Part shown: piece after piece, positions 1-17,302 of the stretch | Layout of the letters: each line of letters opens with the position of its first letter | Position numbering within the stretch: the first letter of the stretch is position 1 | Source: a virus | Lineage: Duplodnaviria; Caudoviricetes | DNA: 64,000 nt | Reading direction: 5' to 3' (one strand) | IMG/VR virus record: IMGVR_UViG_3300008954_002687 | Location: 1-64,000 of that record | Translations under genes and position numbers: made by a program | Notes under the pieces: model-generated | Seen by the model: the letters and a program-made list of their open reading frames with translations, nothing else | Told to the model about the DNA's origin: nothing | Database searches by the model: none

Positions 1-1959
1 ATGGATAAGATAGGGTACACCCTCGGCGGCGCCGGCAAAATAGATGCACCATGGAAAATTAAGAGAAAAATGCTTAAAGTTGCGCTTGATGAAAAAGAAC
101 ATGAAGATTACAACCGAATAAATACTCAAATCGGCTTATATATCCCAAATCCGGGCGTTGCTGGACCCGCTGGTTACGATTTGGAAGAATTAGCCACAAG
201 ATACGGCGAATATTGGAAAAAGAACGCCGGATACATCAAAAAAGAGATAAACAAGCTTGATAATGACAAATATTCCATTATTATCACTCGACACCCCATC
301 GATGTGATGAGAATGAGTGATTTTGAGAAAATTACCTCTTGTCACTCTCCCCCAAGCCGCGGCGGGGGCTCTCAAGAGTATTATAAGTGTGCTGTTGCCG
401 AAGCAATGGGTCATGGAGCTATTGCATACGTTGTGGAGACAGAACACTTGCTTCACGATACAAATACAAGCAATATCGACAGTGCAGAGCAAGAAATTCA
501 AGAAGGCGAACTCTTTCATGATGACGCAAGGAATGCAGTTTCTGGTTATTTAACGCCCGTAAGTCGAACCAGATTGCGCCAAATGCGTTACTATACCGAT
601 CAAGACCTTGCGGGTGGTTCATATTATCCCAAACGCTGGGATGACGGAACAGAGCTAGCAGTACCCGAGAGACGCATCTATGGTGCGGCAATTCCAGGGC
701 TTTATGAACGTGTAGCTGAGTGGGCTCGGGAAAATCAAGAAAAAGCCATTGAAAAAATGCCAATTGACGGAGAAGACGGCGAAGCCATTAATTTAGATCG
801 TTTTTGGATATTTGGTGGTTCGTATGAAGATACCGCCGGCGCCGAGGGAAGAAAAGCGTTACTTTCTCGCCTAATTGGGCGCCCGGAGCTTGATTTTACC
901 GGCAACGTTCACCAAAACCAAGAAACTGAAGATGATTTAGATGCGAACGCTCTCTCTGGGTTCGCAGGACGATGGAGAAATGAAGTCGAAGAGATCATGG
1001 AGGAGTGGAATAACCGTTATGCCAATACGCATGTAGACGCAGAAGTACAGGAAGATTATGAAGGTGGGTTTTACATAAGTGTACGTGCAACGATGCAGTG
1101 GAGTTGGGATTTAGATGAGTTCTCCAAGTTACCCAACTCTTATCCCACCGGAACGTATGTTTTTGATAGTATAAATGATATATGGGGCGATATTTTTGAT
1201 TCAAGTAGTGGATTTATCAACAACTATGACAGAAAAAACGTGAGGATCGGGTGCGCCCTCAATCTAGAACACCCAGAAGTGTATGGAACAGGTGACTATG
1301 TCTATGATCCAGACAACCTTCGAGATCTTTGTGCTGCACTTGATACCAAAATGGATGATAAACGCGATGGTTTCAAGGCGACCATCGAGGAATTTTTAAA
1401 GCGCGAAGGCTGGATGGAAGGTGGAGAATACCTTAAGTTAGCTATGGAAATTGAGGATCGCGATCTCGCATCTTATGAATGGGATCTCGAAACAGACGGC
1501 GAGTATAGTGAGTCATATGAGTCCACCGCAAGATACTCATTTGATTATGACCCCGAAGAGTGGGGAATGGATATCCGTGTATTATTTAAGCTTTTGGATT
1601 CTCGCGATTACAAGATTGCTTTACGCAGAAATTTATTAGAATTACCAAGAAAAGAAGTTGAAACAGAGTATTATCTACAAATGAGCACCCAAACAGTAGA
1701 CTCCGGCGGAGATGCGCGTGTTACCGCTATCTTCTCGATTAATGCGGACGAACCTGATATCATGGCTCAACTTTTTAGAGAGCTTGTAGAGGGTTCTATG
1801 GACGATGAAGACAATCTTACGGTAGTGTTCAATAAGACCTTGGCTACACTCAAAAATAATATGGGTTCGGGAGTGTGGCCGGAAGAAGAGTCCGCAGCTA
1901 CTGCAAACTTGAGTGAGAATCTTGTTAAAACTTGGAAGCAGTTTATAAATTATGGCTAA
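1..1959 (+). CDS. Large acidic phage protein, probably 5'-truncated by the window; possible head-packaged protein
   Basis: 652 aa ORF from base 1. Conserved-looking block IITRHPIDVMRMSDF..SCH..YYKCAVAEA. The C-terminus LSENLVKTWKQFINYG resembles the ENWRKFIN leader of downstream genes. Confidence 0.6.
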   Translation: MDKIGYTLGGAGKIDAPWKIKRKMLKVALDEKEHEDYNRINTQIGLYIPNPGVAGPAGYDLEELATRYGEYWKKNAGYIKKEINKLDNDKYSIIITRHPIDVMRMSDFEKITSCHSPPSRGGGSQEYYKCAVAEAMGHGAIAYVVETEHLLHDTNTSNIDSAEQEIQEGELFHDDARNAVSGYLTPVSRTRLRQMRYYTDQDLAGGSYYPKRWDDGTELAVPERRIYGAAIPGLYERVAEWARENQEKAIEKMPIDGEDGEAINLDRFWIFGGSYEDTAGAEGRKALLSRLIGRPELDFTGNVHQNQETEDDLDANALSGFAGRWRNEVEEIMEEWNNRYANTHVDAEVQEDYEGGFYISVRATMQWSWDLDEFSKLPNSYPTGTYVFDSINDIWGDIFDSSSGFINNYDRKNVRIGCALNLEHPEVYGTGDYVYDPDNLRDLCAALDTKMDDKRDGFKATIEEFLKREGWMEGGEYLKLAMEIEDRDLASYEWDLETDGEYSESYESTARYSFDYDPEEWGMDIRVLFKLLDSRDYKIALRRNLLELPRKEVETEYYLQMSTQTVDSGGDARVTAIFSINADEPDIMAQLFRELVEGSMDDEDNLTVVFNKTLATLKNNMGSGVWPEEESAATANLSENLVKTWKQFINYG

Positions 1960-2191
1960 AAAGAAACTTCTTGAAGACTCGGACTGGCTTTTTACGATGT
2001 TAGCTGCCGTTGTTAAGAGAAGCGGCGGAGAATTGCGTATGCCTGACGAAGACCTTCTCAGTGTATCAAAAAAAGACATTATCGGGCTATTTTACGACAA
2101 AGAGGACAACTGCACTGTGTTGAAACTAGTTAATCCGTCAGAGGTGTTTGGGAAGAGTTTGGCTCTGACAGATAACGATTTGGATAACTAA
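1952..2191 (+). CDS. Hypothetical protein
   Basis: 79 aa ORF overlapping the upstream stop, in a tightly packed + strand run. Confidence 0.6.
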   Translation: MAKKKLLEDSDWLFTMLAAVVKRSGGELRMPDEDLLSVSKKDIIGLFYDKEDNCTVLKLVNPSEVFGKSLALTDNDLDN

Positions 2192-2192
2192 T

Positions 2193-2774
2193 ATGGATGA
2201 TACTTTTAGAAGGCTCAATATCCATTTTGATATTGAGGCACTAAGGAAGGCATATGACCGCGCAGTTAACGAAATTGGGTTTAGCGGCGAATTAGTTAAT
2301 TGTATAAGCTTAACTCACAAAGGCGACTCTCCCGGGGACCCGCGCGGTATTTTCTGGACTAAAAATCTAGATTATGAGGAGATTCAGGTCGAAAAATTTG
2401 TGGATGAGGGGGCATATAAAGTTTTCGAGCCTTTGCTGATGGATTCTTACTTCAAGAACGTCTATGATGTGCTATCGCGACACTTTAGGCTTGGAAGAGT
2501 TAGAATTTTGAAACTAAGCCCTAGGACGTGCCTAAGTTACCATCGCGATCCCGAGAACAGGCTTCATATACCAATTATTACCAACCCGGGCGCCCTAATG
2601 GTGGTTAATAATGAATGCTTTCATATGAAGGCGGAGGGTGATGTATATCATATGAAAACCACTCAGTACCACGCCGCAATGAATGGGGGAGATGTAGAGA
2701 GAATTCATTTAGTTGCAACTATCTTAGACGAAAATCCTGATGATGAACTGTACACTATCTATGGTGGAGACTAG
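2193..2774 (+). CDS. Aspartyl/asparaginyl beta-hydroxylase-like 2OG-Fe(II) oxygenase
   Basis: RVRILKL..LSYHRD..RLHIPIITN..YHAAMNGG..RIHLV fits the HxD...H...R pattern of this family. Confidence 0.8.
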   Translation: MDDTFRRLNIHFDIEALRKAYDRAVNEIGFSGELVNCISLTHKGDSPGDPRGIFWTKNLDYEEIQVEKFVDEGAYKVFEPLLMDSYFKNVYDVLSRHFRLGRVRILKLSPRTCLSYHRDPENRLHIPIITNPGALMVVNNECFHMKAEGDVYHMKTTQYHAAMNGGDVERIHLVATILDENPDDELYTIYGGD

Positions 2775-2801
2775 ATACTAATATAACCATGAAGGAGGGC
2801 T

Positions 2802-3368
2802 TTGTGGGTGCTTGGCGCACGAATTATATTAGTAGCTCAGATGTTGTTATATTCTGGAGTAGAACCACGCACTTCTCCTGAATCGCGGGAAGTAATATTG
2901 GTATCCAACAAGAGTGCCGCGGCAGTACGTCCACCTTTAGAGTGGGCTATCCCGCCTAATATTGTAGTCTGCAGCGGATCTGATGTTGAGATGGACACCG
3001 TACGGCGCGCCACAAAATTCTGGGAGAGACTCGGTTACAAATTTGGCGACATCCGCAAAGCCAAGCGCGACGACTACGCATGCGCAACAGGAATGCCTCC
3101 GCTTAATCAAATTTTAATAGATATCCCAAGTCAAGGGTTTCAGTTTGGAAAACATCTAGGAACCACGCGCACGTGGCATTATACGGAGTCCAATCTCGCC
3201 ATCCGCGCCAAAATAGAAATCGTTAGTGGTTGGGGAAATGCCGCGAGAGTTTTGGAGCACGAGATGGGGCATGCTTTTGGATGGAGAGATAACTCAAAGA
3301 CTGGTCACATTATGAACGGTTCGTGGTCACTAAGTGGATTAAACTCTCAAGGCTTGCGTAAACCGTGA
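2802..3368 (+). CDS. Matrixin/metzincin-like Zn metallopeptidase, probably exported
   Basis: VLEHEMGHAFGWRD (HExxHxxGxx[H/D]) followed by a Met-turn GHIMN; hydrophobic N-terminus; start codon uncertain. Confidence 0.7.
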   Translation: MWVLGARIILVAQMLLYSGVEPRTSPESREVILVSNKSAAAVRPPLEWAIPPNIVVCSGSDVEMDTVRRATKFWERLGYKFGDIRKAKRDDYACATGMPPLNQILIDIPSQGFQFGKHLGTTRTWHYTESNLAIRAKIEIVSGWGNAARVLEHEMGHAFGWRDNSKTGHIMNGSWSLSGLNSQGLRKP

Positions 3369-3709
3369 GATATGAGTATAGAGCAACTCTTATCCGTGTC
3401 ATTGATGGAGACACAATTGACGCTATGATAGATTTGGGTTTCAACACGTGGATTAAAAAAAGAGTGCGTTTGTGGGGCATTAACGCGCCTGAGAGTCGTA
3501 CAAAAAATTTAGAGGAGAAAGCCCTTGGTCTCGCCGCCAAAGAGCGCTTACAGGGGCTTCTAGAGGGCGTAAATGGCGAATTTATATTGATATCTCACGG
3601 AGTAGGCAAGTATGGAAGGTGCCTTGGCACACTACTTATAGGAGAGTATGGAGAAATTCATATTAATAACTTATTGTTGTTTGAAGGATATGCGGAGGAG
3701 TATGAATGA
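3365..3709 (+). CDS. Thermonuclease (SNase-like) family nuclease
   Basis: RVIDGDTID, RVRLWGINAPESRT and GKYGRCLG motifs. Confidence 0.9.
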   Translation: MRYEYRATLIRVIDGDTIDAMIDLGFNTWIKKRVRLWGINAPESRTKNLEEKALGLAAKERLQGLLEGVNGEFILISHGVGKYGRCLGTLLIGEYGEIHINNLLLFEGYAEEYE

Positions 3710-4275
3710 ACAAATTTTTATTTTTAGCGTTGGCGGTTTTGTCTTGTGATCCCACGCCAGTATTAATTACAGAACAAGATACGGCACCAATAGAAGAAGA
3801 CCGAAGCTGGGTCACTTGGGATGAGTGTGGTCACAACATTGATGAAAACCCATGCAACTTTGTTCTTACGGACCAAAATGGCAAAGAAGTGGAACTATAT
3901 GACTTTTATGGTAAAGTTATTGTCGTTGATTTCTCAACGATGTGGTGTGCGGTCTGCGTGAATATCGCGACTGAAGGTGATCAACTTGTAGCCAAGCATG
4001 GCGAAGAAAATGTGGTATGGCTCACAGTGTTAATTGAAAACGAAACCGGGAATCCACCCGATTTAGCTGATCTTCAGCGGTGGGTTGCCACGCATGGCAT
4101 AAAGGTGCCCGTTTTGGGCGCAGATAGGAGCCTTATTGACATGTCTGCTAACACAGGCTATCCTATCGCCGGCTGGCCAACATTGGTAGTGATAGATCGC
4201 AATATGGTTTTAAAACATGGTATTAGCGGCTGGAGCGAACAGGCGATTGATATTTGGGTGAGCGGGTTACTATAA
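3706..4275 (+). CDS. TlpA/redoxin family thiol-disulfide oxidoreductase lipoprotein
   Basis: Lipobox-like LAVLSC; FVLTDQNG..GKVIVVDFSTMWCAVC (CxxC); GWPTLVVID cis-Pro motif. Confidence 0.85.
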   Translation: MNKFLFLALAVLSCDPTPVLITEQDTAPIEEDRSWVTWDECGHNIDENPCNFVLTDQNGKEVELYDFYGKVIVVDFSTMWCAVCVNIATEGDQLVAKHGEENVVWLTVLIENETGNPPDLADLQRWVATHGIKVPVLGADRSLIDMSANTGYPIAGWPTLVVIDRNMVLKHGISGWSEQAIDIWVSGLL

Positions 4276-4280
4276 TTTAT

Positions 4281-4290
4281 ACTACTTATA
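4281..4290 (+). promoter_or_regulatory. Putative phage late promoter (CTANTTA motif)
   Basis: ACTACTTATA 3 nt upstream of the ATG at 4294; related motifs precede several other genes. Confidence 0.45.
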
Positions 4291-4293
4291 AAT

Positions 4294-4392
4294 ATGAATT
4301 ATTTGGATCTAGCACTTAGTAAGCTTGAGGGCGACGAGCTATCGGCATACGAAGAAGAAATCGAGCTTTGGATCACTTACGGAGGCGATTAA
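4294..4392 (+). CDS. 32 aa acidic peptide MNYLDLALSKLEGDELSAYEEEIELWITYGGD (not in ORF track)
   Basis: Manual translation. It fills the gap between TlpA and CglF and shares its C-terminus EL(W/Y)xxYGGD with the 2193 hydroxylase. Confidence 0.55.
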   Translation: MNYLDLALSKLEGDELSAYEEEIELWITYGGD

Positions 4393-4393
4393 A

Positions 4394-4642
4394 ATGAAGT
4401 ATTTATTCTTGTTTTTGCTCTCTGGTATTGCTCTCGCTGATGATACCAAGGAAGAAGAGCCGAAAGTCATTTACAAAGAGCGAACTGAAATCGATTTCGA
4501 AGGCGTTGAAGTTGCCGGCGAACTTGTGCGACCCCAAGGAACGCTCATTTTGGATAGGAAAAGAGCACAATTCAACTCCATGATCAAGCTGCGCACCGAC
4601 TTTGATGATGAAATGGACAAATCAGTAGATGAGATAAAATGA
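4394..4642 (+). CDS. cglF: Adventurous gliding motility protein CglF/GltF homologue
   Basis: GGAGG RBS at 4381 and ATG at 4394. Signal peptide followed by KVIYKERTEIDFEGVEVAGELVRPQG..RKRAQFNSMIKLRTDFDDEMDKS, matching the recalled Myxococcus CglF pattern (IDF...GEL.KP.G...F.SLIK.R..F). Confidence 0.75.
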   Translation: MKYLFLFLLSGIALADDTKEEEPKVIYKERTEIDFEGVEVAGELVRPQGTLILDRKRAQFNSMIKLRTDFDDEMDKSVDEIK

Positions 4643-4670
4643 AACTCCTATTTGAAAACTGGCGCAAGTT
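4639..4670 (+). repeat. Leader repeat copy 1 (MKLLFENWRKF)
   Basis: atgaaactcctatttgaaaactggcgcaagtt; 3 mismatches to copies 2 and 3. Confidence 0.9.
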
Positions 4671-5667
4671 TGTCAAGGAAGAGGCTTCATTCGATCTTAA
4701 GAACGCTGCCACTGCTTTCGATGCTGGGAGCCCAAAAGCTCGTAAAGACGAGTTTATGACGAGGGTCAAAGAGACTGCTAACAAGCTCGGCTTTCACTAT
4801 GTTAAAAAACTTGGCGAAGGTCAAATGGGCGAAGTATTTTTGGTCGAGAACAAAGAAACCGGCGAACGCAATGCGCTGAAGGTTGTAACTGATCGCCTCT
4901 ACGGTGGTCCGGCAACTTCTGAGCAGGAAGCCAGAAACTATCGATTTGCGATGGAAAACAAGGCATCGATGCCTGAAAAATATGCCAAGTATTTGCCCGA
5001 TGTATATGAAGTGGTTAAGGGAGATAAAGACTATTATATCTTTATGGAGGTTCTCCAAGATATCCCAGATAGAGTGAAAACTGACTTATTTCGATTGAAT
5101 GCAAAGGATTTTTCCTTGGATCGATATGAAAAGTATGTTAGAATATTAAAAGACCCCCAAGCTACTTACGACATTATCTTAACTGCCCTCTACGGAGATC
5201 TTATTTTAGCGCAAGGAGATGAGGACGTGAAGGAGAATATTCTGCACAATGTTCCAAATAAAGTTATAAAGAAAATCATGGATGACACAGACACCGACTG
5301 GGGTTGGAAGACTGTTGATGCTCTTGCTGATCTAATTGTTCAAGAATCTATGGAATATCTCCATCAAGGAGATGGGTTCTATGAATCTTTGCCAGTTTCC
5401 TTTAGAGATTCACTTCGACTTTCATTGGACGAAGCTTTTGACAAGCAGATAGTTCCCGTACATCAAGGACACGGCGCCGTTTCACACGCAGGTCGTTCCC
5501 CAGAAAGCATAGAAAAGCTATTCCCCGAGGCGCGGAATCTGATGGCTGCGATGAGATATTTCCATGATGATCAGAAATGGCAACCGAAAGATGTTCACTC
5601 GGGAAATGTGATGGTTCGTCCCGGGACAAAGGACTTCGTGATCACCGATCTCGGACTATTTAGCTAA
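4639..5667 (+). CDS. Protein kinase-like enzyme with shared N-terminal leader
   Basis: LGEGQMGEVF Gly-loop, ALK, helix-C Glu, IFME hinge, KDVHSGNVM catalytic loop; ends TDLGLFS right after the DFG-equivalent. Confidence 0.85.
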   Translation: MKLLFENWRKFVKEEASFDLKNAATAFDAGSPKARKDEFMTRVKETANKLGFHYVKKLGEGQMGEVFLVENKETGERNALKVVTDRLYGGPATSEQEARNYRFAMENKASMPEKYAKYLPDVYEVVKGDKDYYIFMEVLQDIPDRVKTDLFRLNAKDFSLDRYEKYVRILKDPQATYDIILTALYGDLILAQGDEDVKENILHNVPNKVIKKIMDDTDTDWGWKTVDALADLIVQESMEYLHQGDGFYESLPVSFRDSLRLSLDEAFDKQIVPVHQGHGAVSHAGRSPESIEKLFPEARNLMAAMRYFHDDQKWQPKDVHSGNVMVRPGTKDFVITDLGLFS

Positions 5668-5668
5668 T

Positions 5669-5700
5669 ATGAAACTCCTACTTGAAAATTGGCGAAAGTT
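5669..5700 (+). repeat. Leader repeat copy 2 (MKLLLENWRKF)
   Basis: atgaaactcctacttgaaaattggcgaaagtt, identical to 6289-6320. Confidence 0.95.
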
Positions 5701-6292
5701 TTTAAACGAGAAAAAGTGGGAAGATTTCGACATTCCCAAGAATCAATGGTCGGATGTTAGCCCAGAAGACATTAAATCGTCTCAAGATCCTCTAAACGTA
5801 GATCTGTCAGACGAGTTGTACGATCTTATTAACACAGCGTACGCGCCTATAGGGGGACATTTTGATTTTAATAACTCCGGAGATTTGCCGGCGGACCATG
5901 ATGATTGGATAGCAATCGATTGGGACGAAGATCCCGAACCTGACGCGTTAAGAATTGGCAAGAACACACCCGCCGGCATAAAGATGACTGGCGCAGGACA
6001 TGACGGACAACGTCAAAGCAAGCGACACTATATTGAAAAAACACTGGAATTGTTATCAAGTCCCGGCTATTACGCCGAAATGTCTAAGCGCATAGCTGAC
6101 ATCATGATTAATGCCGGTGTGCCGTACGTCGGCGACCCCGAGGTGCTCGCGAGGGTGTTGGGTCCCACTAAAGAATTTGAATGGCTAGGAGATCATCCAG
6201 ATGGTTTGTATCCCGAGTATAAGGGGTGGTATCGTCGCTCAGTCGGTGGAAATCCGGGTGAATTGAAAATTATGTTTGGAGATCCTCGATGA
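5669..6292 (+). CDS. Phage protein of unknown function with shared N-terminal leader
   Basis: 207 aa starting MKLLLENWRKFLNE; blocks AYAPIGGH, GHDG, YAEMS, GWYRR..GG look conserved. Confidence 0.75.
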   Translation: MKLLLENWRKFLNEKKWEDFDIPKNQWSDVSPEDIKSSQDPLNVDLSDELYDLINTAYAPIGGHFDFNNSGDLPADHDDWIAIDWDEDPEPDALRIGKNTPAGIKMTGAGHDGQRQSKRHYIEKTLELLSSPGYYAEMSKRIADIMINAGVPYVGDPEVLARVLGPTKEFEWLGDHPDGLYPEYKGWYRRSVGGNPGELKIMFGDPR

Positions 6293-6320
6293 AACTCCTA
6301 CTTGAAAATTGGCGAAAGTT
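6289..6320 (+). repeat. Leader repeat copy 3 (MKLLLENWRKF)
   Basis: Identical 32 nt to 5669-5700. Confidence 0.95.
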
Positions 6321-6975
6321 CATAAATGAAGAGCATGAGCCCATCACAACCCTTCGTATCTTCGACTTCGATGAAACAATAGCCCACACGAGGTCAGAAA
6401 CACGCGTTAAAGCCCCTGATGGTTCCGAAGCGATTCTAGGCAACCAACAGGAATTTGAGGAGTATATGAATGCCGCAGCGGCAAAAGAGGGCATTGAGGC
6501 ATTTGATGCAGTCGACAAATTGATGGAATTGGGATATGAAATTGATTTAAGTGATTTCTCGATTGTGAAGGACCCCGATGAGATTGTGATAGTCACCGAT
6601 GAGCTTCGTGAGTTCTCCGAGAATTCAAAGACGTACATTATGACTGCTCGACGGGGACAATCTCTTGGTCCTATCTTAGATTATCTAGATGAGATCGGAA
6701 TCGACTCGTCAAGAGTGCGACCGATTGCAACACAGGGAGAATCCAAGGGAGACGTCATCGCTCACATGATTTCACAAAAGATTATGAATAGTGGAAAATC
6801 CAACATCAATCGCATTGAATATTACGAAGATTCGCAAAAGAATATTGATGATGTGTTAAACAAGATATGCAATAATGAACAATTAGCCGAGATTAAACCA
6901 GAAGATTTCGTGCTTATCGACAATAAAGTAATTAAAATTGATGACGGCTATAAATTAGAACAGATCAGTTGTTAA
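6289..6975 (+). CDS. HAD-superfamily phosphatase with shared N-terminal leader
   Basis: Motif I IFDFDETI, motif II IMTAR, Lys in ESKGD, motif IV YYEDSQKN. Confidence 0.8.
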   Translation: MKLLLENWRKFINEEHEPITTLRIFDFDETIAHTRSETRVKAPDGSEAILGNQQEFEEYMNAAAAKEGIEAFDAVDKLMELGYEIDLSDFSIVKDPDEIVIVTDELREFSENSKTYIMTARRGQSLGPILDYLDEIGIDSSRVRPIATQGESKGDVIAHMISQKIMNSGKSNINRIEYYEDSQKNIDDVLNKICNNEQLAEIKPEDFVLIDNKVIKIDDGYKLEQISC

Positions 6976-7008
6976 TTTAAAACTAATTAAAGGCGTAGGA
7001 GGCGCACG

Positions 7009-7335
7009 ATGTCTAACATAAACAATGGATGGGAGACCTATTCAAAATTAGTATTACAACAACTGGAGACACTTGCCGGCGGCATTGAAGGTCTTCGGTC
7101 TGAGCTTCAAGATGTAAAGGGGCAATTGACCGAATTAAAAGCGAGAGAAGATCGCGTGCAAGATCTAAAGGCTTGGAAAGAAAAGGTGGATGAAGTCGCT
7201 TCCCCTACTCAAATGCAAGCTAAGTTTGAAGAGATAGAAGAACTAAAAGAATTTAAAACCAAGGCAGTGACCATATTTATGGTAATCCAAACACTAATGG
7301 GTATCGCGATGGCATGGGGTCTTGATATTTTTTAG
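7009..7335 (+). CDS. Coiled-coil protein with C-terminal transmembrane helix
   Basis: GGAGG RBS; heptad pattern; C-terminal AVTIFMVIQTLMGIAMAWGL; ACTAATTA motif at 6982. Confidence 0.7.
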   Translation: MSNINNGWETYSKLVLQQLETLAGGIEGLRSELQDVKGQLTELKAREDRVQDLKAWKEKVDEVASPTQMQAKFEEIEELKEFKTKAVTIFMVIQTLMGIAMAWGLDIF

Positions 7336-7364
7336 TTGACAGGTGCTCATGAAGCGGTTACATT
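7336..7364 (+). promoter_or_regulatory. Sigma70-type early promoter
   Basis: TTGACA-17 nt-TACATT just before the ATG at 7370. Confidence 0.6.
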
Positions 7365-7369
7365 GTCGT

Positions 7370-7621
7370 ATGTATAATTTTAAAGTTGGTGATTTAATAG
7401 CCAAGAAAAACCCTAATCAAGATTTGATACTCAAAGTGGGAGTGATCTTGCGCTCCGAACAGGATGCTTTTATCGTCAAGTGGACCTCATATAACAAAGA
7501 ATTCTTTATGGAAAAAGAAGATGATATGTTCGGAGAGCTTAACAATATGTACCTTTTATCTCTCCAATCTTTCAACCGGCGCGCCGAAGGAGCTTTTTTG
7601 TGTTTGCTAAATCCTAGTTAA
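7370..7621 (+). CDS. Small SH3/KOW-like barrel protein
   Basis: FKVGDLIAKK...VGVIL...VKW pattern; start placed at the ATG downstream of the promoter. Confidence 0.55.
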   Translation: MYNFKVGDLIAKKNPNQDLILKVGVILRSEQDAFIVKWTSYNKEFFMEKEDDMFGELNNMYLLSLQSFNRRAEGAFLCLLNPS

Positions 7622-7624
7622 AAT

Positions 7625-7915
7625 ATGGGGAATAGCACTGAACTTACAGAAAGAATAAAGAGAGTAATCCGACAAATATCTGGAAAAGTATCCGATACTG
7701 AAATGGAATTGCTCCCAGAATATCGTATAAAAGGGTCTGGTGTTCTCTATTGTCTTTCGGTAGACAATAAAAAATTTATTAAGGTTGCCCGGGGGATCTC
7801 GGCATATGTAATCGAAGAAGATTATGATACACAAATGAGAACTTTGATTTATACTCTTTATGGAGATATAGTTTTAATAGAGCCCGAAGAAATAGAGGAA
7901 ATAGGTTTTGAATAA
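7625..7915 (+). CDS. Hypothetical protein
   Basis: 96 aa ORF abutting both neighbours. Confidence 0.6.
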   Translation: MGNSTELTERIKRVIRQISGKVSDTEMELLPEYRIKGSGVLYCLSVDNKKFIKVARGISAYVIEEDYDTQMRTLIYTLYGDIVLIEPEEIEEIGFE

Positions 7916-8067
7916 TGTTATTTAGATTTAATAAGTTTTGGAAATCATTACTTTTTTTAATCAGCGCATGGGTTTGTTACGGTGCGTGGGGATTTGAGTT
8001 CACAGTCATTACCTTGTTATCTGTTGTTTGCATGCTCCAATTAAGAGACAACAACATTCATTTTTGA
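7915..8067 (+). CDS. 50 aa membrane protein (not in ORF track)
   Basis: TAATG overlap with upstream gene; MLFRFNKFWKSLLFLISAWVCYGAWGFEFTVITLLSVVCMLQLRDNNIHF has two hydrophobic segments. Confidence 0.55.
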   Translation: MLFRFNKFWKSLLFLISAWVCYGAWGFEFTVITLLSVVCMLQLRDNNIHF

Positions 8068-8203
8068 AACATGAAAAAATATAAATTTGAAGTTATAAAT
8101 TTAACCGACAAGAAATGCGAAACCATGGAAGTTTCGAATGAGTTCTCGGTTTACGATAGAAAAACAAAAAGCTACACAGTGATAACTTGCGAATTGTCTA
8201 ATT

Positions 8204-8431
8204 ATGACAGTTCCAATGAATCACGCCAAACGAAATAGGACATTTGTTCGTTCGCATGGGTCAACCCTCACCCGCGCAGGAGAAGAGTTATTCTTAGTGT
8301 ACACCTACGAGGCAAAAACGGAAAAAGTCACATCAGAGGGACCATATACCAATGAAGATGAAGCCTTTGAGTGGATGCGCGATAAACTATCTGAAGGCAC
8401 ATGTGCATGGGTGGTTTCATACGATGGATGA
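8204..8431 (+). CDS. Hypothetical protein
   Basis: 75 aa ORF; start uncertain. Confidence 0.5.
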   Translation: MTVPMNHAKRNRTFVRSHGSTLTRAGEELFLVYTYEAKTEKVTSEGPYTNEDEAFEWMRDKLSEGTCAWVVSYDG

Positions 8432-8693
8432 AAGACCCTCTTTTGGAGAGTTGTCTTCTGAGGCGTTAGAAGTGGGAGACTTGGTTGAATGGTCTACGTG
8501 GAATAGCGATGAGGACTGCTGGCACTACAACTACGGAATTATAACTGAGATTAAAAACGAAATACGCACAAACCGAATGGTCTCAATTTCTAAGGTAATG
8601 CCCATGAATGGTGACCACATCGAATTGGAACACTTTTCACTAAGTCTCCGATTGGTATCCCGCTCACAGGAGAACACATATGATGATAGTTGA
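8424..8693 (+). CDS. Small SH3/KOW-like barrel protein
   Basis: LEVGDLVEW...YGIITEI pattern; ATG at 8424 overlaps the upstream gene end. Confidence 0.55.
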   Translation: MDERPSFGELSSEALEVGDLVEWSTWNSDEDCWHYNYGIITEIKNEIRTNRMVSISKVMPMNGDHIELEHFSLSLRLVSRSQENTYDDS

Positions 8694-9021
8694 TCACATT
8701 GCTATTCGTGTCGATAACCTTGAAGAAGCAGAAGAATGGTATATTGAGCATACGGGCGCCGAAGTAACTTTTCGTGATTCCAAATATATAAGATTAAGGG
8801 TAAAAAACACCAATCTTGCATTAATTGACAAGAAGTTTTACCCATGGGCACACGTGGCAGTCTTAGTGGAATCAAAAGAAGACTTGCCTTTAGATAAAGG
8901 CAAGGTAATCCACCATCGCGATGGAACTATCGGAGTATATGTAAAAGACCCATTTGGGAACTATTTAGAGTATATTTGGTACTCTGACGAACAAAAAGAG
9001 GTTTTCTTAAGCAATGATTGA
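8680..9021 (+). CDS. VOC/glyoxalase family protein
   Basis: VDHIAIRVDNLEEAEEWY, HVAV, YVKDPFGNYLE. Confidence 0.85.
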   Translation: MMIVDHIAIRVDNLEEAEEWYIEHTGAEVTFRDSKYIRLRVKNTNLALIDKKFYPWAHVAVLVESKEDLPLDKGKVIHHRDGTIGVYVKDPFGNYLEYIWYSDEQKEVFLSND

Positions 9022-10072
9022 TGTTATTAGTCCTATGATTAAACAATTTTTACCATTTGCACAGGAAAGAATGGGGTTTGACGATCCTCCTAAATTATTT
9101 TTGAAAGGAGATTCGGCAAACGCAAAAAACCCGCTTGGCAAAACTGCGTACTACGATCCTAGCGAACGCACAATCACCGTCTATATTACCGGACGACATC
9201 CAAAAGATGTCATGCGGTCGATTTCACACGAACTGGTGCACCACAAACAGAACTGTGGTGGTCAATTCGATGAAGTGGGAGAAATGGGGGAAGGGTACGC
9301 ACAAAACGACGAACATTTACGCGAAATGGAGCGTGAAGCATACGAAATGGGAAATATGTGCTTCCGAGATTGGGAAGACAGCATAAAAAGTACTATTTAT
9401 TTTGAACATCTACAAAAAGGAGAAATAAAGATGTCTACTAAAGACTGGAAAAACGGAGAAATCAAAACTCTCCTTACAGAAGCTTGGGGCTTTCAAATGG
9501 ACCTAAGCAAATTAAACGAAGACGTTGGCGGAGCCGCCGGCGAGCTTACCGATAAGGAAGCAAAAGAAGAGGATTATGTCTCTAAGCGAGAGAAGGAAGG
9601 TAACATTTCTGAAGACTCTGGTGAGGAGGAAGGCGAGCATTACAAAGATAATGAGATGCACGACGAAGACCACATTAAAGCTATTGAGCATCACTTGGAC
9701 GCCCTCAAGCATGATAGAGATTATGATGAGGACCACATCGATGAGCAGAGCAAATCGGATTTGAAAGACCGGACTGGTGGTCGTGACACAGCTGGTAGGC
9801 GCCTCGACGAAGAGGGTGACGAGCTAGAAGAGGTTGGCGGTGTGGGCGCTGGTTCCCCAGATCCTCGCAACCGTCGAAAGCCGCATGGTACTGGGCGCCC
9901 TGTCGATGACAAGGCAAAGAAGAAGAAGGATGATGACGAATTAGAAGAAGACTCGTTTCCCGGCAAGCGCGATATGGAGCAGCACAAATCAGATCTCTCA
10001 GAGAGACAAAAGCACATTCGTGCTCTTGTTCAAAAAGCCCTTAAAGAGGCTATTAAGAACCGCAAAGGATAG
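9014..10072 (+). CDS. HExxH Zn-peptidase-like domain fused to an acidic low-complexity head-protein-like region
   Basis: RSISHELVHHKQ...EREAY. The C-terminal part has repeated L/I-x-E sites. Internal RBS and ATG at 9431. Confidence 0.7.
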   Translation: MIDVISPMIKQFLPFAQERMGFDDPPKLFLKGDSANAKNPLGKTAYYDPSERTITVYITGRHPKDVMRSISHELVHHKQNCGGQFDEVGEMGEGYAQNDEHLREMEREAYEMGNMCFRDWEDSIKSTIYFEHLQKGEIKMSTKDWKNGEIKTLLTEAWGFQMDLSKLNEDVGGAAGELTDKEAKEEDYVSKREKEGNISEDSGEEEGEHYKDNEMHDEDHIKAIEHHLDALKHDRDYDEDHIDEQSKSDLKDRTGGRDTAGRRLDEEGDELEEVGGVGAGSPDPRNRRKPHGTGRPVDDKAKKKKDDDELEEDSFPGKRDMEQHKSDLSERQKHIRALVQKALKEAIKNRKG

Positions 10073-10170
10073 ATTTACAATGACAGGTAAAGGTAAAAAT
10101 TGAGCTTAAGAAGCTTCAAAATCGTTTTATTCAAAGCCTGTTATTCACAATAATAACGGAAGGTACAGAT

Positions 10171-10422
10171 ATGTCATTAGATTCAGAATGGAGAAATTTT
10201 CTTGTAAACGAAAGTTTAGATGAAAAAACTATTTTTACTTATATTCAAGGATTACAAGAGATCATCTCTAATTTGAAGCCTCGCACAGTTTCTGAGAAGC
10301 GGCGCATACAATTAGCTAAACAACATTTAAGCGAGGTGCGTCGGTATGCGCGGCGTATGTTAAATGAAAACTTAGATCTTCAAGATAAGCTTAAGATATT
10401 AGAAGAGAACAAGGAGAGCTAA
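10171..10422 (+). CDS. Small coiled-coil protein with leader-like N-terminus
   Basis: MSLDSEWRNFLVNESLDE resembles the ENWRKFLNE leader. Confidence 0.65.
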   Translation: MSLDSEWRNFLVNESLDEKTIFTYIQGLQEIISNLKPRTVSEKRRIQLAKQHLSEVRRYARRMLNENLDLQDKLKILEENKES

Positions 10423-10423
10423 A

Positions 10424-12394
10424 ATGGGTGGTGCTGCAGGACACATGAATCATCCGTTTGATTTAAGCTGGGTTAACACCGGTGATGATCTCATTGATTT
10501 TTTTGAAAGAGCTAAGGCTTTTGTCGAAGATAAGGGAGCGGGAGCGGTCAAGATTGACGGCGTGAACGTTTCCTTTAAAGTAGTAGAGACCGAGCGCGGT
10601 CATGAATTCGCTGTTGATCGTGGATCCCTCAAAAATATTGACATTGAAGGTATCACGATGGACCGTGTTGATGATAGGTTCCCCGAAGGTCACGGCATGC
10701 GCCCGGCAATTCGTTCACTGCTCACAATCCTAAATACCGCTCTACCTTCCATTCAGGATGAACTAATGGATTTAGGAATGTGGGAGAACCCCTCTATGTT
10801 TCTTAACACCGAATATGTAGAAGGTACAACTAACGTCACTGAATACGACGAAAACTTTCTAGCCATCCACGGATTAAATCAGTTTTATGAAAAGACAGCT
10901 AAATCTGGACCCAGCAAGGGCAATATGCGACCCGGCGCCGAGCGACCGGAGGGCGTTAAAGCTCCCAGCCATGAAGTGTCTTATAATCCTGAAACCATGC
11001 AAGAGTTAATTGATAAACTAAATCCTATAGCTAACGAATATGGATTTCAAGTATATGGGTCAGTTCCAACTGAAAGGCTGGATGATGTTGATGTAGATTT
11101 TGCGCCTGCTATGTCAGAGCCGTTCACTGTAAAGTTATCAGAAGACAGAGAAATCACAAAATCGCTAGGGGAGTGGCTATCGGAAGCAACCAACCCCCGC
11201 TACAAAGCGGTAAAATTAAAAAATGGGAAGAAAACACACCCGTTGCACAAAGAGCTTTATAAAGCCATTCTAGACGGCTCAGTTCCTTTAGTGGACATAG
11301 TAGAAGACGCAGATGTTGAGGCAGCTATATATGGTGCTATTATAATGCACGCTACACGCATACTAGGCAACAGCATCCTAAGCGCCCTCACCAGTCCGAT
11401 GGGAGATGTGATTAATCACGAAGGTGTGGTTCTCAGAGATGAGAAGACCTTTGGACCCAACCCTGTAAAAATTACAGGAGACTTTATTCTAGGAGGGATG
11501 AGTTCAAATTTTCAAGCAGCCCAATCGCTCGACGAAGCAGAGGGTGATGAGTTGCCTCCTTGGGATTCAGAAGCGGACGAATGGTATGAATTAAGACACC
11601 AAATGGATCAGGATCAGTGGCTTGACATAGAAATCGAAGACGAAGACGACGATCCCGTAAAGGATTCAGATTTTCCAAAAACAATTGCTGTTGTTCCGGG
11701 TGCATTCAAACCACCTCACAAGGGACACCTTGGCATGGTACGCGCATACGCTGAAGAGGCGGATGAGGTCATAGTAATAATTTCTCGACCTACAAAGTCC
11801 GGGCGCACCCTTCCAAACGGAAAAGAGATCACAGCGGAAGATTCGCTTAAGATTTGGGAATTGTTAGTAGGCGACCTGCCAAACGTAAGCGTCCAGATAT
11901 CCGACCATGCGTCTCCCTTAACGGCAGCATATGAGTATATCGGAAAGGATGGTCCTCTAGAGCCCGACACAGAAGTTATACTGGGTGCTAGCACCAAAGG
12001 CGGTGATTGGAAGCGTTGGCAGGGAGCCGAAAAATATATTAAAGATGGTGTAACGCTGCGTGATCCAAGGTCAACCGCCGTGGCGCCAGTCGCACGTCCC
12101 AGTGGGGAACCATACAGCGCTACCGACATGAGGAGACTTATTGGAGCGGCAGAGGAAGATCCCAATGCTATCGAAGAGTTGGAAGATTTCATCGGCGAGG
12201 AGAATGTGTTTGATTTACTCTCCATTCTCGGCATTGGTGCACCGATGGCTGAAATGTCTGCTGCTGGAGCAGGCGCAATACAAGGCGGAGGTGCACCGGT
12301 AAAGAAAAAGAAGATGGTGAGAAGAGAAAATATTAACATAGATACCGTTGATGAAGTAATGAGACTAATTATGGAAAGAGGCATTTTACAATGA
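10424..12394 (+). CDS. Ligase-like nucleotidyltransferase domain fused to an HIGH-type cytidylyl/adenylyltransferase
   Basis: N-half: GHMNHPFD, VKIDG (KxDG), HEGVVLR, VKITG. C-half: PGAFKPPHKGH and YSATDMR. Acidic linker with SLDEAE. Confidence 0.7.
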   Translation: MGGAAGHMNHPFDLSWVNTGDDLIDFFERAKAFVEDKGAGAVKIDGVNVSFKVVETERGHEFAVDRGSLKNIDIEGITMDRVDDRFPEGHGMRPAIRSLLTILNTALPSIQDELMDLGMWENPSMFLNTEYVEGTTNVTEYDENFLAIHGLNQFYEKTAKSGPSKGNMRPGAERPEGVKAPSHEVSYNPETMQELIDKLNPIANEYGFQVYGSVPTERLDDVDVDFAPAMSEPFTVKLSEDREITKSLGEWLSEATNPRYKAVKLKNGKKTHPLHKELYKAILDGSVPLVDIVEDADVEAAIYGAIIMHATRILGNSILSALTSPMGDVINHEGVVLRDEKTFGPNPVKITGDFILGGMSSNFQAAQSLDEAEGDELPPWDSEADEWYELRHQMDQDQWLDIEIEDEDDDPVKDSDFPKTIAVVPGAFKPPHKGHLGMVRAYAEEADEVIVIISRPTKSGRTLPNGKEITAEDSLKIWELLVGDLPNVSVQISDHASPLTAAYEYIGKDGPLEPDTEVILGASTKGGDWKRWQGAEKYIKDGVTLRDPRSTAVAPVARPSGEPYSATDMRRLIGAAEEDPNAIEELEDFIGEENVFDLLSILGIGAPMAEMSAAGAGAIQGGGAPVKKKKMVRRENINIDTVDEVMRLIMERGILQ

Positions 12395-13197
12395 ACCAGA
12401 ATGAGAAGAATCTAAGACACAATATAAGACGTTTGGTGCGTCATGTCAAGGATAAAAAGCTTAATGAGCAAAAAAAGTTCAAGGACTTAGTTGTTGCCCT
12501 TATGCAACACGAATTCCGAACGATGTTACAAGAGGCGCAGACGCCAGATGTAGACCCAACACCTAACAAGTCCACCGGAATTAATGTTCTGGAAGAACTC
12601 CTTAAGAAGATTGTACCAGTTTTGGAGACAGATTACAAGTCTTTAACAACAAATACTGAACAGAGAGACTCGTTCCGCGGGCATATCGTTAATGCTGTGG
12701 TTAATACATTGACTCCTGCCATGGCAAACAACGAAGCCGGCGATGAAGCCGAGGAATTGCAAGAAATTGATGTCGAGGAAGAAATCGAGATCGAAATTGG
12801 TGATGAAAGCCCATCTGACGATGATAAGTTTATTGACATCCGAACCGATGCTGAAAAATCAGCTGAAGAAGAGGAAGAAGAAGAGGATCCAAGAGATAGC
12901 TTTGGTGCTGGTATCGAAGGTGATGAAACTGGTAGGAACATGGCTTATCAGAGTTTTAAGAAAATTGAAAGCAGTGTTATTGACTCCTACGAGTTACTGT
13001 CGGATCCTGAAGACCAAGAATTATTTTATGACTACCTGATCGCGAACTTGAAGCTATACTTTGACAAATTTGAAGGAGAGCTATCAGGCGATGTTAGTGA
13101 ACCCACCAATCAAGCTTACGATACCGCCAAACAAGACGCCTCAGACGCTGTACCAGCCGATGAAGAGCCAGTTTTAGAAGTTGATTTAGAAATTTAA
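12391..13197 (+). CDS. Acidic prohead core/scaffold-like protein
   Basis: Basic helical N-terminus with KLNE and MLQE sites, poly-Glu stretches. Confidence 0.55.
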   Translation: MNQNEKNLRHNIRRLVRHVKDKKLNEQKKFKDLVVALMQHEFRTMLQEAQTPDVDPTPNKSTGINVLEELLKKIVPVLETDYKSLTTNTEQRDSFRGHIVNAVVNTLTPAMANNEAGDEAEELQEIDVEEEIEIEIGDESPSDDDKFIDIRTDAEKSAEEEEEEEDPRDSFGAGIEGDETGRNMAYQSFKKIESSVIDSYELLSDPEDQELFYDYLIANLKLYFDKFEGELSGDVSEPTNQAYDTAKQDASDAVPADEEPVLEVDLEI

Positions 13198-13210
13198 TTT
13201 AAAAAAGTGC

Positions 13211-13239
13211 TTGACAAAGTCTAAAACCAGCGTTAAACT
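13211..13239 (+). promoter_or_regulatory. Sigma70-type early promoter
   Basis: TTGACA-17 nt-TAAACT with an A/T-rich upstream element. Confidence 0.7.
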
Positions 13240-13278
13240 AAAGTTGTGCTGGCATGTGATAGTTAATAATATTATATT

Positions 13279-13611
13279 ATGAAAGCTAAAACTAATAAAT
13301 CAACTTCTATTAATACTAGTATAATCACAAAGCTTAAAGATCAAAGCTCGCTCACAGATGAAACTTTAGTTGGGATTGGTAATTTATCCCTAGAAGACTT
13401 AATCGCTGTGAAGCTGGAGCTTTCTTGCAATAATATAAATAATAGGCTTTTTGGGTTTGACATTTGGCGCCAAACAGGGTATATTGTAAAAGATGCTCTA
13501 CTAAAATTTGCTATCTCAACCACCAACTCTAAAAAAAGCGCCGCTAGGTTTCTTGGACTAACTTATGATGAATTTAAGAAATCATGTACTAAATACAATA
13601 TTGATATTTGA
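13279..13611 (+). CDS. Fis-like HTH DNA-binding protein
   Basis: C-terminal ALLKFAISTTNSKKSAARFLGLTYDEFKK. Confidence 0.6.
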   Translation: MKAKTNKSTSINTSIITKLKDQSSLTDETLVGIGNLSLEDLIAVKLELSCNNINNRLFGFDIWRQTGYIVKDALLKFAISTTNSKKSAARFLGLTYDEFKKSCTKYNIDI

Positions 13612-13621
13612 AATTCTTAAC

Positions 13622-13743
13622 CCGGTCGGTCCTAGGGTAAAACGCGTGGCACCATGCCTAATTATGTGCCTCCAAAACACAGGGTTTAAACCAACTAAAC
13701 TATGGGATAGCAGGTGGTGAGCAAAAGAAACCACACCGACCGG
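13622..13743 (+). ncRNA. Unidentified 122 nt structured RNA
   Basis: Perfect 9 bp closing stem CCGGTCGGT/ACCGACCGG; internal hairpins GGCAC/GTGCC (13648-13670) and GTGGT/ACCAC (13714-13734); intergenic; strand assumed from context. Confidence 0.55.
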
Positions 13744-13766
13744 TATTTATAAAGGAGCAGCGAGAA

Positions 13767-14021
13767 ATGTGGAAAGTATATAAGTGGGATGGACACTATA
13801 TTATGGGAGAATTCATCAGTAAACACTCTACAGAAGCTGCAGCCTTAAAAGCAGCCAAAAAGAAAATTAATTACGCGAGAACAGAGCGGAGCACACTACC
13901 GTCGTTTAAAGCTAATAATGAAATTGTAATTTGGCTTGATTCCGACAATGGGACACCCATGGGCTTAATTGTTAAAAAAATAAGAAAGAAAAAAGGGGAC
14001 GAAATGGTTTCGACAGGGTAA
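13767..14021 (+). CDS. Small basic hypothetical protein; 3' end overlaps tmRNA
   Basis: AAGGAG RBS and GTATTTATA motif upstream; 84 aa. Confidence 0.6.
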   Translation: MWKVYKWDGHYIMGEFISKHSTEAAALKAAKKKINYARTERSTLPSFKANNEIVIWLDSDNGTPMGLIVKKIRKKKGDEMVSTG

Positions 14022-14373
14022 CAAAGAGGAATAGTGCAAGTAGTCAAACGTACCAGCAGACTTAAAACGCAGATACAAAATATAATTGCTAATAACAATA
14101 ATCACTTCGAATCTGTCCGCTTAGCGGCTTAATCGGGAGGTCGCTCAAAACCTTCTATCCAATTTGAGCAAAACAACAGATAAGTTGCAAAAATCAAAAA
14201 ACCATCTAATGTAAAGGACGATGCCCTTCGGGGTGACATTAGATTAAATCGTTCTGCTTTTGTCAGTTTCGCAGCAGATATTGGTTTGCAAAATATCAAA
14301 ACATGACTAAACTTGTGAATGACTAGAATTAGAGTTATTCTGGACGCGGGTTCGACTCCCGCCGTCTCCACCA
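13995..14373 (+). ncRNA. ssrA: tmRNA; tag peptide ANNNNHFESVRLAA* at 14088-14132
   Basis: 5' GGGGACG..TTCGAC; 3' T-arm GCGGGTTCGACTCCCGC plus CGTCTCCACCA; G3:U70 alanine identity pair; resume codon GCT after ATAATT; tag ends LAA. Confidence 0.95.
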
Positions 14374-14385
14374 CCTATATAATAT

Positions 14386-14652
14386 GTGGATTATGACGTT
14401 GAATACTTCCAATTTGAAATTGGGGACATTGTTAGAGAGAGGCATTGGATCACGGTGTCGCCCGGTCGCCCCATGTATGGGGTCGTTGTGGAGGTTGTGA
14501 GAAATGGTTACAAAGACCTTGAATGGATTGATTCGGGCGATGATAGACTCACAGTATTCTGGTTTAGATATCGCCACACAGAAACATTACCTTCGTGTTT
14601 TGTAGAATTAGTTTCTATGGTGGGAGAATTAATTCTAGAAGATGGAGAATAA
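14386..14652 (+). CDS. Small SH3/KOW-like barrel protein
   Basis: FEIGDIVRE...YGVVVEV...LTVFWF pattern. Confidence 0.6.
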   Translation: MDYDVEYFQFEIGDIVRERHWITVSPGRPMYGVVVEVVRNGYKDLEWIDSGDDRLTVFWFRYRHTETLPSCFVELVSMVGELILEDGE

Positions 14653-14716
14653 AAGAAATAAAACATATACATACTATTGACAGGGAAACCTATAATAGTT
14701 GGGATTATGAGCTGAG

Positions 14717-15193
14717 ATGAAGATAAAAGTTGCTTTTTTTAGAGGCAAAGGAAATTGGAAAAACAAAGTTATTCGTTGGTGGACAAAAAGTCCTTTTAGC
14801 CACGTTGAACTAATACTGCCAGATGAAAAAACGTGGATTAGCATTAGCCCGTTCTTAACCTCAAGAGTTGCTGCTAGAAACAAAGAACACGTAAATCAAG
14901 ATAATTGGGAATTCGTCGAAATTGAGGTAACTGAGCAACAGGTTAATGTCATAAAAGAGTTCTATGACTTTACAGAAGGCTGTCACTACGATTGGATTGG
15001 CATGCTGTTATCACAGTTTCTGCCTTTTCACGTAAAACGCCGAAATAAGTGGTATTGTAGCGAGTGGATTGCATATGCCCTCAGAATTAGCTGTGTAATT
15101 GACTGGAGACTGATTAAGATTTATGACCGTTGTGATTTATCGCCGGCGGTTTTATATAATATCATAACGGCGGCTCCCAATGGCAATTTATAA
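14717..15193 (+). CDS. Permuted papain-like amidase (YaeF/YiiX/NlpC-P60 type)
   Basis: FSHVEL (His), HYDWIG, KWYCSEWIA (Cys), LSPAVLY. Confidence 0.8.
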   Translation: MKIKVAFFRGKGNWKNKVIRWWTKSPFSHVELILPDEKTWISISPFLTSRVAARNKEHVNQDNWEFVEIEVTEQQVNVIKEFYDFTEGCHYDWIGMLLSQFLPFHVKRRNKWYCSEWIAYALRISCVIDWRLIKIYDRCDLSPAVLYNIITAAPNGNL

Positions 15194-15392
15194 AACAGAT
15201 GAATGGGTTCTCTATTGTGCTTTCCCGGATTCAAAAAGTGAGTTTTTATCCGGGGAAAGAAAAAGGGCTGTTATTTTAGAGGTTCTTTCAAAAAAAGACA
15301 TTTATGATTATCGAATCTTTATAGATGGAGAGGGAAAAATAAAAAAAGTTAAGGAATCGCAACTTTTTCCCGTTACCACCCCTACCTACTAA
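15180..15392 (+). CDS. Small SH3-like barrel protein
   Basis: 70 aa; AVILEV..YRIFID..KVKESQL. Confidence 0.55.
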   Translation: MAIYKTDEWVLYCAFPDSKSEFLSGERKRAVILEVLSKKDIYDYRIFIDGEGKIKKVKESQLFPVTTPTY

Positions 15393-15397
15393 TAGGG

Positions 15398-16441: not shown

Positions 16442-16464
16442 CAGTATAATTGAGGGCACAATGA

Positions 16465-16731: not shown

Positions 16732-16740
16732 GGAAATAAT

Positions 16741-17205: not shown

Positions 17206-17273
17206 TTCTAGAAGAGCAATAGCACTGTATGAGTTTTAACTATAAATTGTATACGGAATTAGTAATTTTGTCC

Positions 17274-17302
17274 TTGACAGGATACTTTCTGTGTGATATA
17301 TT
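17274..17302 (+). promoter_or_regulatory. Sigma70-type early promoter with extended -10
   Basis: TTGACA-17 nt-TATATT preceded by TGn. Confidence 0.7.

Follow-up and report, generated by a model that had tools for sequence, protein, structure and literature searches.

A GltF-like gene carried by marine T4-like phages and its possible role in a host Glt-type envelope machine

Phages are known to carry host-derived auxiliary genes such as cyanophage psbA/D1, which resupplies a labile subunit, and they also encode small exported proteins that block a receptor or pilus machine, among them T5 Llp, Cor and the Pseudomonas phage proteins Tip and Aqs1. The gene that I discuss here resembles a part of the Agl-Glt gliding machine, in which GltF is the least understood periplasmic component, with contacts that are predicted only. 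In its passages on this subunit, PMC3169522 describes gltF (MXAN_4868) as encoding a protein of 89 residues with a signal peptide, places it among seven genes confined to Myxococcales and Bdellovibrionales, and reports that gliding requires gltF, that GltF-mCherry is found at focal adhesion clusters and that the clusters of GltD depend on GltF; the same protein is named CglF in PMC4488436, which equates the two in the part concerned. The AlphaFold models presented in the relevant section of PMC11761067 give a largely disordered GltF, with its C-terminal helix predicted in a crevice of GltC and one beta-strand predicted to be paired with the TonB-like C-terminal domain of GltG, and on these two predictions GltF would bridge the adaptor of the outer-membrane platform and the inner-membrane part of the machine.

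A phage-borne glt or cgl gene was sought in the published literature and none was found, in keeping with the initial annotation of this DNA, which knew of no described phage-borne gliding gene; in a preprint on myxobacterial viruses (10.64898/2026.09.14.751636) 'glt' is absent from the text, and its supplements could list such genes. A tblastn search of 50,697 GenBank phage records gave no match to the phage GltF at E <= 1, so no deposited phage of that collection carries the gene. The window considered here is a stretch of 64,000 nucleotides, positions 1 to 64,000 of the linear IMG/VR virus record IMGVR_UViG_3300008954_002687 (G000; 101,443 bases, estimated to be 52% complete), and, as far as searched, its gltF-like gene is the first on a phage to encode a structural subunit of a machine of the Agl-Glt (bacterial focal adhesion) type.

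The gene, its product and its family

The gene and its immediate surroundings comprise the following features.

3706..4275, directly upstream of gltF: AhpC/TSA-redoxin family protein, 189 residues, with a lipoprotein-like N-terminus (LAVLSC) and a WCAVC motif
4247..4276, plus strand: promoter-like TTGATA-18-TATAAT, 11 of 12 consensus positions matched, spanning the stop codon of the preceding gene and the beginning of the 118-nt gap that separates it from gltF
4381..4385, plus strand: putative ribosome-binding site GGAGG, read from the sequence, 8 nt 5' of the gltF ATG
4394..4642, plus strand: gltF/cglF-like gene matching NF033764, 82 codons and a TGA stop (ATG 4394; TGA 4640-4642), product P0001
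4394..4438, plus strand: signal peptide MKYLFLFLLSGIALA, residues 1-15, with cleavage predicted after A-L-A by inspection
4478..4531, plus strand: conserved strand-forming core ERTEIDFEGVEVAGELVR, residues 29-46, defined by row conservation
4595..4639, plus strand: C-terminal helix TDFDDEMDKSVDEIK, residues 68-82, with an AlphaFold2 helix at 71-81 and the motif DFDDEMDKSVDE
4639..5667, plus strand: protein-kinase-like gene, 342 residues, its ATG overlapping the gltF stop (ATGA); Pfam Pkinase E 1.2e-07, 31.9 bits against a cut-off of 31.7

The 82-residue gene first proposed for this locus is real, being an open reading frame with a ribosome site and a profile match (NF033764, E 4.2e-15, 55.5 bits, residues 7-81 against profile positions 9-88 of 88) and being conserved in 43 viral contigs; the residue pattern quoted for it held in part, IDF, GEL, RP, SMIKLR and F occurring in that order in EIDFEGVEVAGELVRPQGTLILDRKRAQFNSMIKLRTDF, and its dot spacing was wrong. 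A 105-residue frame with a TTG start (4325-4642) was ruled out, and ATG 4394 is preferred because the signal peptide, the GGAGG and the point at which the relatives begin all agree on it. By inspection MKYLFLFLLSGIALA, followed by DDTKEEE, offers a basic residue, a hydrophobic core and an A-x-A end, with no lipobox and no cysteine, and this N-terminus reads as a type I Sec signal peptide; the AlphaFold2 model places a signal-peptide helix at residues 4-11, and the relatives in the alignment all begin with a hydrophobic stretch and an A-x-A end followed by an acidic stretch. The idea that the phage copy might reach neighbouring cells by outer-membrane exchange finds no support, as transfer from cell to cell requires a type II (lipoprotein) signal sequence, according to the part of PMC4488436 that deals with it, and the phage protein is without one. 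Beyond the signal peptide, the AlphaFold2 monomer is extended (pTM 0.20, mean pLDDT 73.8), with helices only at 4-11 and 71-81.

The promoter-like site is the best of 12 such sites within 3300-7400, where shuffled sequences hold 8.4 on average, and is a consensus match only. The kinase-like gene downstream is probably co-transcribed with gltF. Upstream, the redoxin-like protein (3706-4275) would by its N-terminus be a second envelope-targeted phage protein, and its gene adjoins gltF in three of the 43 related loci (L019, L026 and L027). A leader of the form (M/V)KLL(F/L/M)ENWRKF(V/L/I) is nearly identical on four otherwise unrelated reading frames of 342, 207, 228 and 341 residues, the first of which is the kinase-like gene, and begins at the following positions.

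4639-4680, 5669-5710 and 6289-6330: starts of three shared-leader reading frames
About 86398 of the record (G000:C1; L132:4398): start of the fourth

T4 internal proteins carry an N-terminal capsid-targeting sequence, and by analogy the four shared-leader proteins, the kinase-like one included, could be taken into the capsid and injected.

With respect to family, the initial annotation named CglF/GltF, and this assignment stands on a significant NF033764 match in a contig that is neither cellular nor chimeric. The profile (NCBIfam, 'adventurous gliding motility protein CglF') has an equivalog cut-off of 90 bits, of which the phage GltF falls short; that cut-off is narrow, considering that 109 of 151 sampled genomes of one phylum (that of the marine genome G003, discussed below) hold a match at E <= 1e-5 and only 3 of the 151 hold one of at least 90 bits, and that none of 65 relatives scanned with the profile reaches it, the highest scoring 72.1 bits. 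At E <= 0.001 the relatives of P0001 amount to 687 cluster representatives. When phage, marine and Myxococcus-type sequences are aligned in 14 rows, six of them at or near the NF033764 cut-off, the invariant residues Y27, T31, D34, F35, G42, P47, G49, R55, I64, R67, F70 and S77 are all kept in the phage, and across 29 phage and 79 cellular rows T31-E36, G42 and L44 are invariant or nearly so. The phage protein also has the GltF/CglF layout, being small (the family measures about 80-100 residues), with an N-terminal Sec signal by inspection and without a lipobox. Since its score lies below the cut-off and identity over the mature chain is 35-41% to Myxococcus-type CglF rows that score at that level or close to it, the phage protein is, judged by its sequence, a member of the wider GltF family nearest to the marine clade and not an equivalog of M. 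xanthus CglF. Pfam has no family for P0001 at E <= 10, PHROGs gives nothing significant (best E 0.14), and P0001 is the only NF033764 match in the 101-kb record.

Ownership, ancestry and host of the phage gene

The record belongs to a tailed phage. Its long reading frames lie on one strand throughout, hallmark genes included, and encode gp25-like and wedge baseplate proteins, a tail lysozyme domain, PhoH, an exonuclease, the large terminase, portal, prohead protease, primase, and RuvC-like and SbcC-like proteins, to which the record adds three tRNAs and one tmRNA. The terminase is T4-type and matches 2,599 phage records, and a phage genome near 200 kb fits related contigs of 195,690 and 203,368 bases. 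Giant reading frames flank the baseplate genes (42426-48929, 2,167 residues; 53060-64000, more than 3,646 residues and open at the end of the window), the second with a laminin-G/concanavalin-like domain, and both are probably tail fibre or host-recognition proteins. A region of about 14 kb (22586-36737) holds three glycosyltransferase-like genes, two FabG-like reductases, a UDP-glucose dehydrogenase-like and a phosphoheptose-isomerase-like gene, a methyltransferase and a cysteine-dioxygenase-like domain, a content that suggests phage-directed modification of surface or DNA glycans.

A scan of IMG/VR returned the 43 contigs with a relative (50-83% identity), and 34 of these also hold one or both of the phage genes that flank gltF in the window (orf1_652, of 652 residues, upstream; o228, of 228 residues, downstream), between which a nuclease, the redoxin lipoprotein, a hydroxylase and the kinase vary among relatives while gltF stays. 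The base composition of gltF agrees with the phage and not with cells, three phage copies having a third-position GC (GC3) of 0.38-0.48 and the four cellular copies closest to the phage one of 0.64-0.84. Of the 406 pairs of phage copies, 274 are saturated at synonymous sites; in the remaining 132, dN/dS has a median of 0.076 and reaches 0.235 at most; phage gltF is under strong purifying selection. The shared neighbourhood, the phage-like GC3 and the saturation with low dN/dS together make gltF an old, selected phage gene, neither a chimera nor a recent capture. Although the record is a metagenomic assembly, estimated at about half complete, and the closest relatives of the gene are cellular, it is hardly credible that mis-assembly joined a cellular fragment to a viral contig or that a cellular contig was miscalled viral: the same phage neighbourhood recurs in those 34 contigs from many samples, both GC and GC3 of the gene are phage-like and unlike those of cells, the 80 cellular loci introduced below have no further gene in common with the phage at E <= 1e-6, and phage hallmark genes on a single strand run through the record. 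The concern, raised at the outset, that the contig might prove cellular or chimeric is therefore answered by the hallmark genes, the 43 viral contigs, the GC3 and the comparison with cellular loci, all of which identify it as phage.

The gene is found in at least three distinct phage genome contexts, since in L029 the GltF homologue lies beside DNA polymerase, thymidylate-synthase-like and nucleotide genes, and in L036, a contig of 316,664 bases, it lies about 1 kb upstream of a terminase and portal from other PHROG families. In marine sequencing data, four runs of one study hold at least half of the words from window positions 3300-7000, and none of the runs listed is RNA.

Cellular counterparts were collected with a pattern derived from a 9-row alignment, which was run over 185,579 species genomes; 141 loci were confirmed and 80 of them retained. 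The retained loci have a GC content of 48-72% and come from metagenome-assembled genomes (MAGs) titled Myxococcota, Deltaproteobacteria or Oligoflexia, or bearing placeholder names (Enterobacterales, Klebsiella). GltG follows the homologue in 61 of the 80. Three loci (L048, L052 and L096) have the order outer-membrane protein (OMP_myx_plus barrel), GltC, TPR protein, GltE, CglF and GltG, with a TPR protein of 1,040-1,080 residues at the GltD position; in L048 and L052 CglE and then a choice-of-anchor-D protein come after GltG, and L047 reads CglF-GltG-CglE-anchor D. This position within a glt cluster argues that the nearest homologues are genuine gltF genes. The place between gltE and gltG is absent for the phage gene and present for its nearest cellular relatives, and homologues of the outer-membrane protein, GltC, GltD, GltE, GltG, CglE and the anchor-D protein were found neither in the phage record nor in the 43 viral loci.

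In its mature part the phage protein shares 53 of 65 residues (82%) with the proteins of L046 and L047, DFDDEMDKSVDE included, and over the mature region it is 78-82% identical to the four marine loci L045-L048, with DFDDEMDKSVDE identical in L046-L048. A tree of 118 distinct rows (12 others dropped, 11 as duplicates and 1 as truncated), built on 84 columns and with many forks unresolved, unites 29 viral rows, that of the window among them, in one clade (SH-aLRT 92), which sits within a set with the cellular L045-L048 (SH-aLRT 96). The viral rows L041 and L042-L044 fall elsewhere among cellular rows, so that the viral label requires three changes on the tree, and their nesting with other cellular rows suggests separate acquisitions. 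The only phage-specific positions, when the 29 phage rows are compared with the 79 cellular ones, are A50S, L63M and N71D, and D71 is also found in L045-L048. As the tree places it, phage gltF is host-derived, with an origin beside one marine cellular clade.

A second line of evidence on the host comes from the following feature.

13995..14373: phage tmRNA, Rfam 131.8 bits, tag ANNNNHFESVRLAA

When a tmRNA was sought in the four genomes behind L045-L048 (G001-G004, 3.9-4.2 Mb), it was found above the family cut-off in three, with the tags ANNNNHFAAAAVA (G002), ANNNNHFAATAVA (G004) and ANNNDNFAAAAVA (G003). The rare tag start ANNNNHF is common to the phage, G002 and G004, that is, to two of the three genomes in which a tmRNA was found, and was absent from the tags of 30 further genomes from the same phylum, where the nearest is ANNNNAFAIAA; the tag ends differ, with RLAA in the phage versus AVA in G002 and G004. 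The tmRNA as a whole is 41-50% identical to all 33 cellular tmRNAs, the phage sitting on a long branch in an uninformative tree. The tag match would lend moderate, independent support to a host in the lineage of G001-G004, and phage GltF likewise points to marine Myxococcota-like hosts with genomes of about 4 Mb, a lineage that I name after the record titles; the link is built on one short gene and seven tag residues. The suggestion in the initial annotation that the gene indicates the host lineage is thus strengthened by both the GltF tree and the tmRNA tag.

At the DNA level, window positions 1-20000 match G001-G004 only in gltF (68-75% identity) and three tRNAs (74-89%), and a DNA search of the same positions against these genomes gave no spacer-like match. 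The tRNA matches were considered as a host marker and do not discriminate, nor does the redoxin-like lipoprotein, which is 36-42% identical to its counterparts in G001-G004 and 39% to that in G005. A search for GltJ (NF033761) in G001-G004, all of them incomplete, gave no match at E <= 1e-10, and no control genome was matched either. The closest cultured phage by terminase (48% identity) infects Flavobacterium, and I count this against the best reading.

Docking and possible function of the phage GltF

The strand-forming core and the C-terminal helix are the best conserved parts of phage GltF, and residues 29-46, mapped by numbering offset, would correspond to the GltG-pairing strand in the models described in PMC11761067. 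Three cellular proteins of 636-766 residues (P0144, P0248 and P0264), which also carry a VWA or 'marine proteobacterial sortase target'-like region, have a CglF-like segment immediately followed by a C-terminal, TonB-like AgmX/PglI domain; the arrangement resembles the GltF-GltG contact in fused form and would provide Rosetta-stone type support for the link. Complex prediction of phage GltF residues 16-82 with the C-terminal domain of the L047 GltG scored 0.38 versus 0.00 for the best control, a weak pass of a kind that, on the method's own account, misleads more often than not where the pairing was not already likely. Agreement between the runs extends to at least 85% of contacts, with a partner pLDDT of at least 48. 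Of 157 solved complexes 116 attain the mark applied, as do 2 of 215 mismatched pairs, and those at the mark with scores of 0.60 or less comprise only 18 of the 157 solved complexes together with both passing mismatches; as the alignments were self-built, these benchmark counts hold only roughly. I infer from the above that the phage protein is exported to the periplasm and docks on the GltG and GltC of the host.

What might the phage gain from this? The initial annotation suggested a change in motility, the masking of a receptor (superinfection exclusion) or an effect on neighbouring cells. The reading that I favour, at a probability of roughly one half, is that a host-derived GltF resupplies the linker and so keeps a Glt-type complex of the host coupled during infection. 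An ancestor of this marine T4-like phage clade would have acquired gltF in the remote past, with marine Myxococcota-like bacteria as the donors; during infection, translation of the phage GltF would start from a ribosome site of its own, and export by Sec with cleavage after residue 15 would leave a mature chain of about 67 residues without a fold of its own. Its conserved strand (TEIDFEGVEV..GEL) would pair with the TonB-like C-terminal domain of the inner-membrane GltG while its C-terminal helix would bind the periplasmic adaptor GltC. The predicted disorder suggests that the protein may be unstable, and a small, unstructured and probably short-lived subunit would in this way be resupplied once host gene expression fails in a long infection. 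That the effect would be to sustain rather than to block is favoured because conservation in the phage copy is at host level for both interfaces and every invariant residue.

Blocking is nevertheless a serious rival, since a surplus of a two-sided linker could separate its partners as readily as connect them: phage GltF, in excess or binding more tightly, could saturate GltG and GltC separately and cut the outer-membrane platform off from the inner-membrane motor, which would exclude superinfecting phages if the Glt platform or the TonB-like coupling serves adsorption or DNA entry, or would arrest an energy-consuming machine. The same docking evidence serves this reading as serves the sustaining one, the phage has the linker only and no other glt gene, three otherwise conserved positions are altered in the phage clade (with D71 shared by the marine cellular copies), the occurrence in at least three phage contexts is what exclusion or entry-blocking genes often display, and small exported proteins by which phages obstruct a receptor or pilus machine form an established class. 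I regard it as possible, on the doubtful side, because a pure blocker needs one interface, whereas both predicted interfaces and all family-invariant residues remain at host level in the phage copy.

It is improbable, in turn, that the protein is a re-used scaffold, a GltF descendant with a periplasmic role unrelated to Glt, for example in binding another TonB- or Tol-like domain or in acting with the neighbouring thioredoxin-like lipoprotein. Such a change of role could be argued from the missing companion glt genes, the score under the equivalog cut-off, the redoxin-family neighbour (adjacent in three of 43 loci) and the CglF-like segments in large VWA-domain proteins, but the mature protein is 82% identical to a cluster-encoded GltF with identical C-terminal motifs, dN/dS is about 0.08, and neighbours differ among related phages while gltF stays; that identity and that dN/dS are the pattern expected with unchanged partners. 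Turning back to a role for GltF within the Glt machine, a wider and rather unlikely reading would join entry with control: cosmopolitan marine phages would enter through the Glt machine of the host (outer-membrane platform, GltF, TonB-like GltG and Tol-like motor), the phage GltF would then control this gate, shutting out rivals or re-tuning attachment or movement on marine particles, and several unrelated lineages infecting the same bacteria would have taken up the linker for that purpose.

Significance and comparison with known systems

The immediate value of these observations is a testable host assignment for a widespread, uncultured clade of T4-like marine phages of about 200 kb, with the GltF phylogeny and the tmRNA tag as markers, and the presence of gltF in at least three phage contexts argues that the Glt machine matters during infection. 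A minimised and strongly conserved viral GltF also marks the residues that are needed, and offers a small tool for probing or disturbing the GltC-GltG link. With this example, the notion of host-derived auxiliary phage genes would reach beyond metabolism to take in a structural linker that is exported and belongs to an envelope machine.

Compared with GltF/CglF of M. xanthus (MXAN_4868), the phage copy is alike in size, signal peptide and C-terminal helix, and the two have a common core of the form Y-K-x-x-T-x-x-D-F...G...P-x-G...R...I-x-x-R-x-x-F...S; unlike it, the phage copy stands without other glt genes and scores 55.5 bits against the 90 of the equivalog cut-off. The GltF of the marine MAGs (L045-L048) is closer, like the phage copy in its mature region and its sister in the tree, with the tmRNA tag start common to two of the genomes, and differs in its GC3 of 0.64-0.84, in its place within a glt cluster and in having A50 and L63 where the phage has S50 and M63. 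T5 Llp, Cor and Tip/Aqs1 are likewise small, exported or envelope-targeted proteins acting on an envelope machine of the host; they are not homologues of the subunit that they block, whereas phage GltF is a near copy of a subunit. A parallel to the favoured reading is cyanophage psbA/D1, which like phage gltF is a single subunit of a host machine carried on marine T4-like phages, host-like in sequence and under purifying selection, with the difference that GltF belongs to neither metabolism nor photosynthesis, being a structural linker that is exported.
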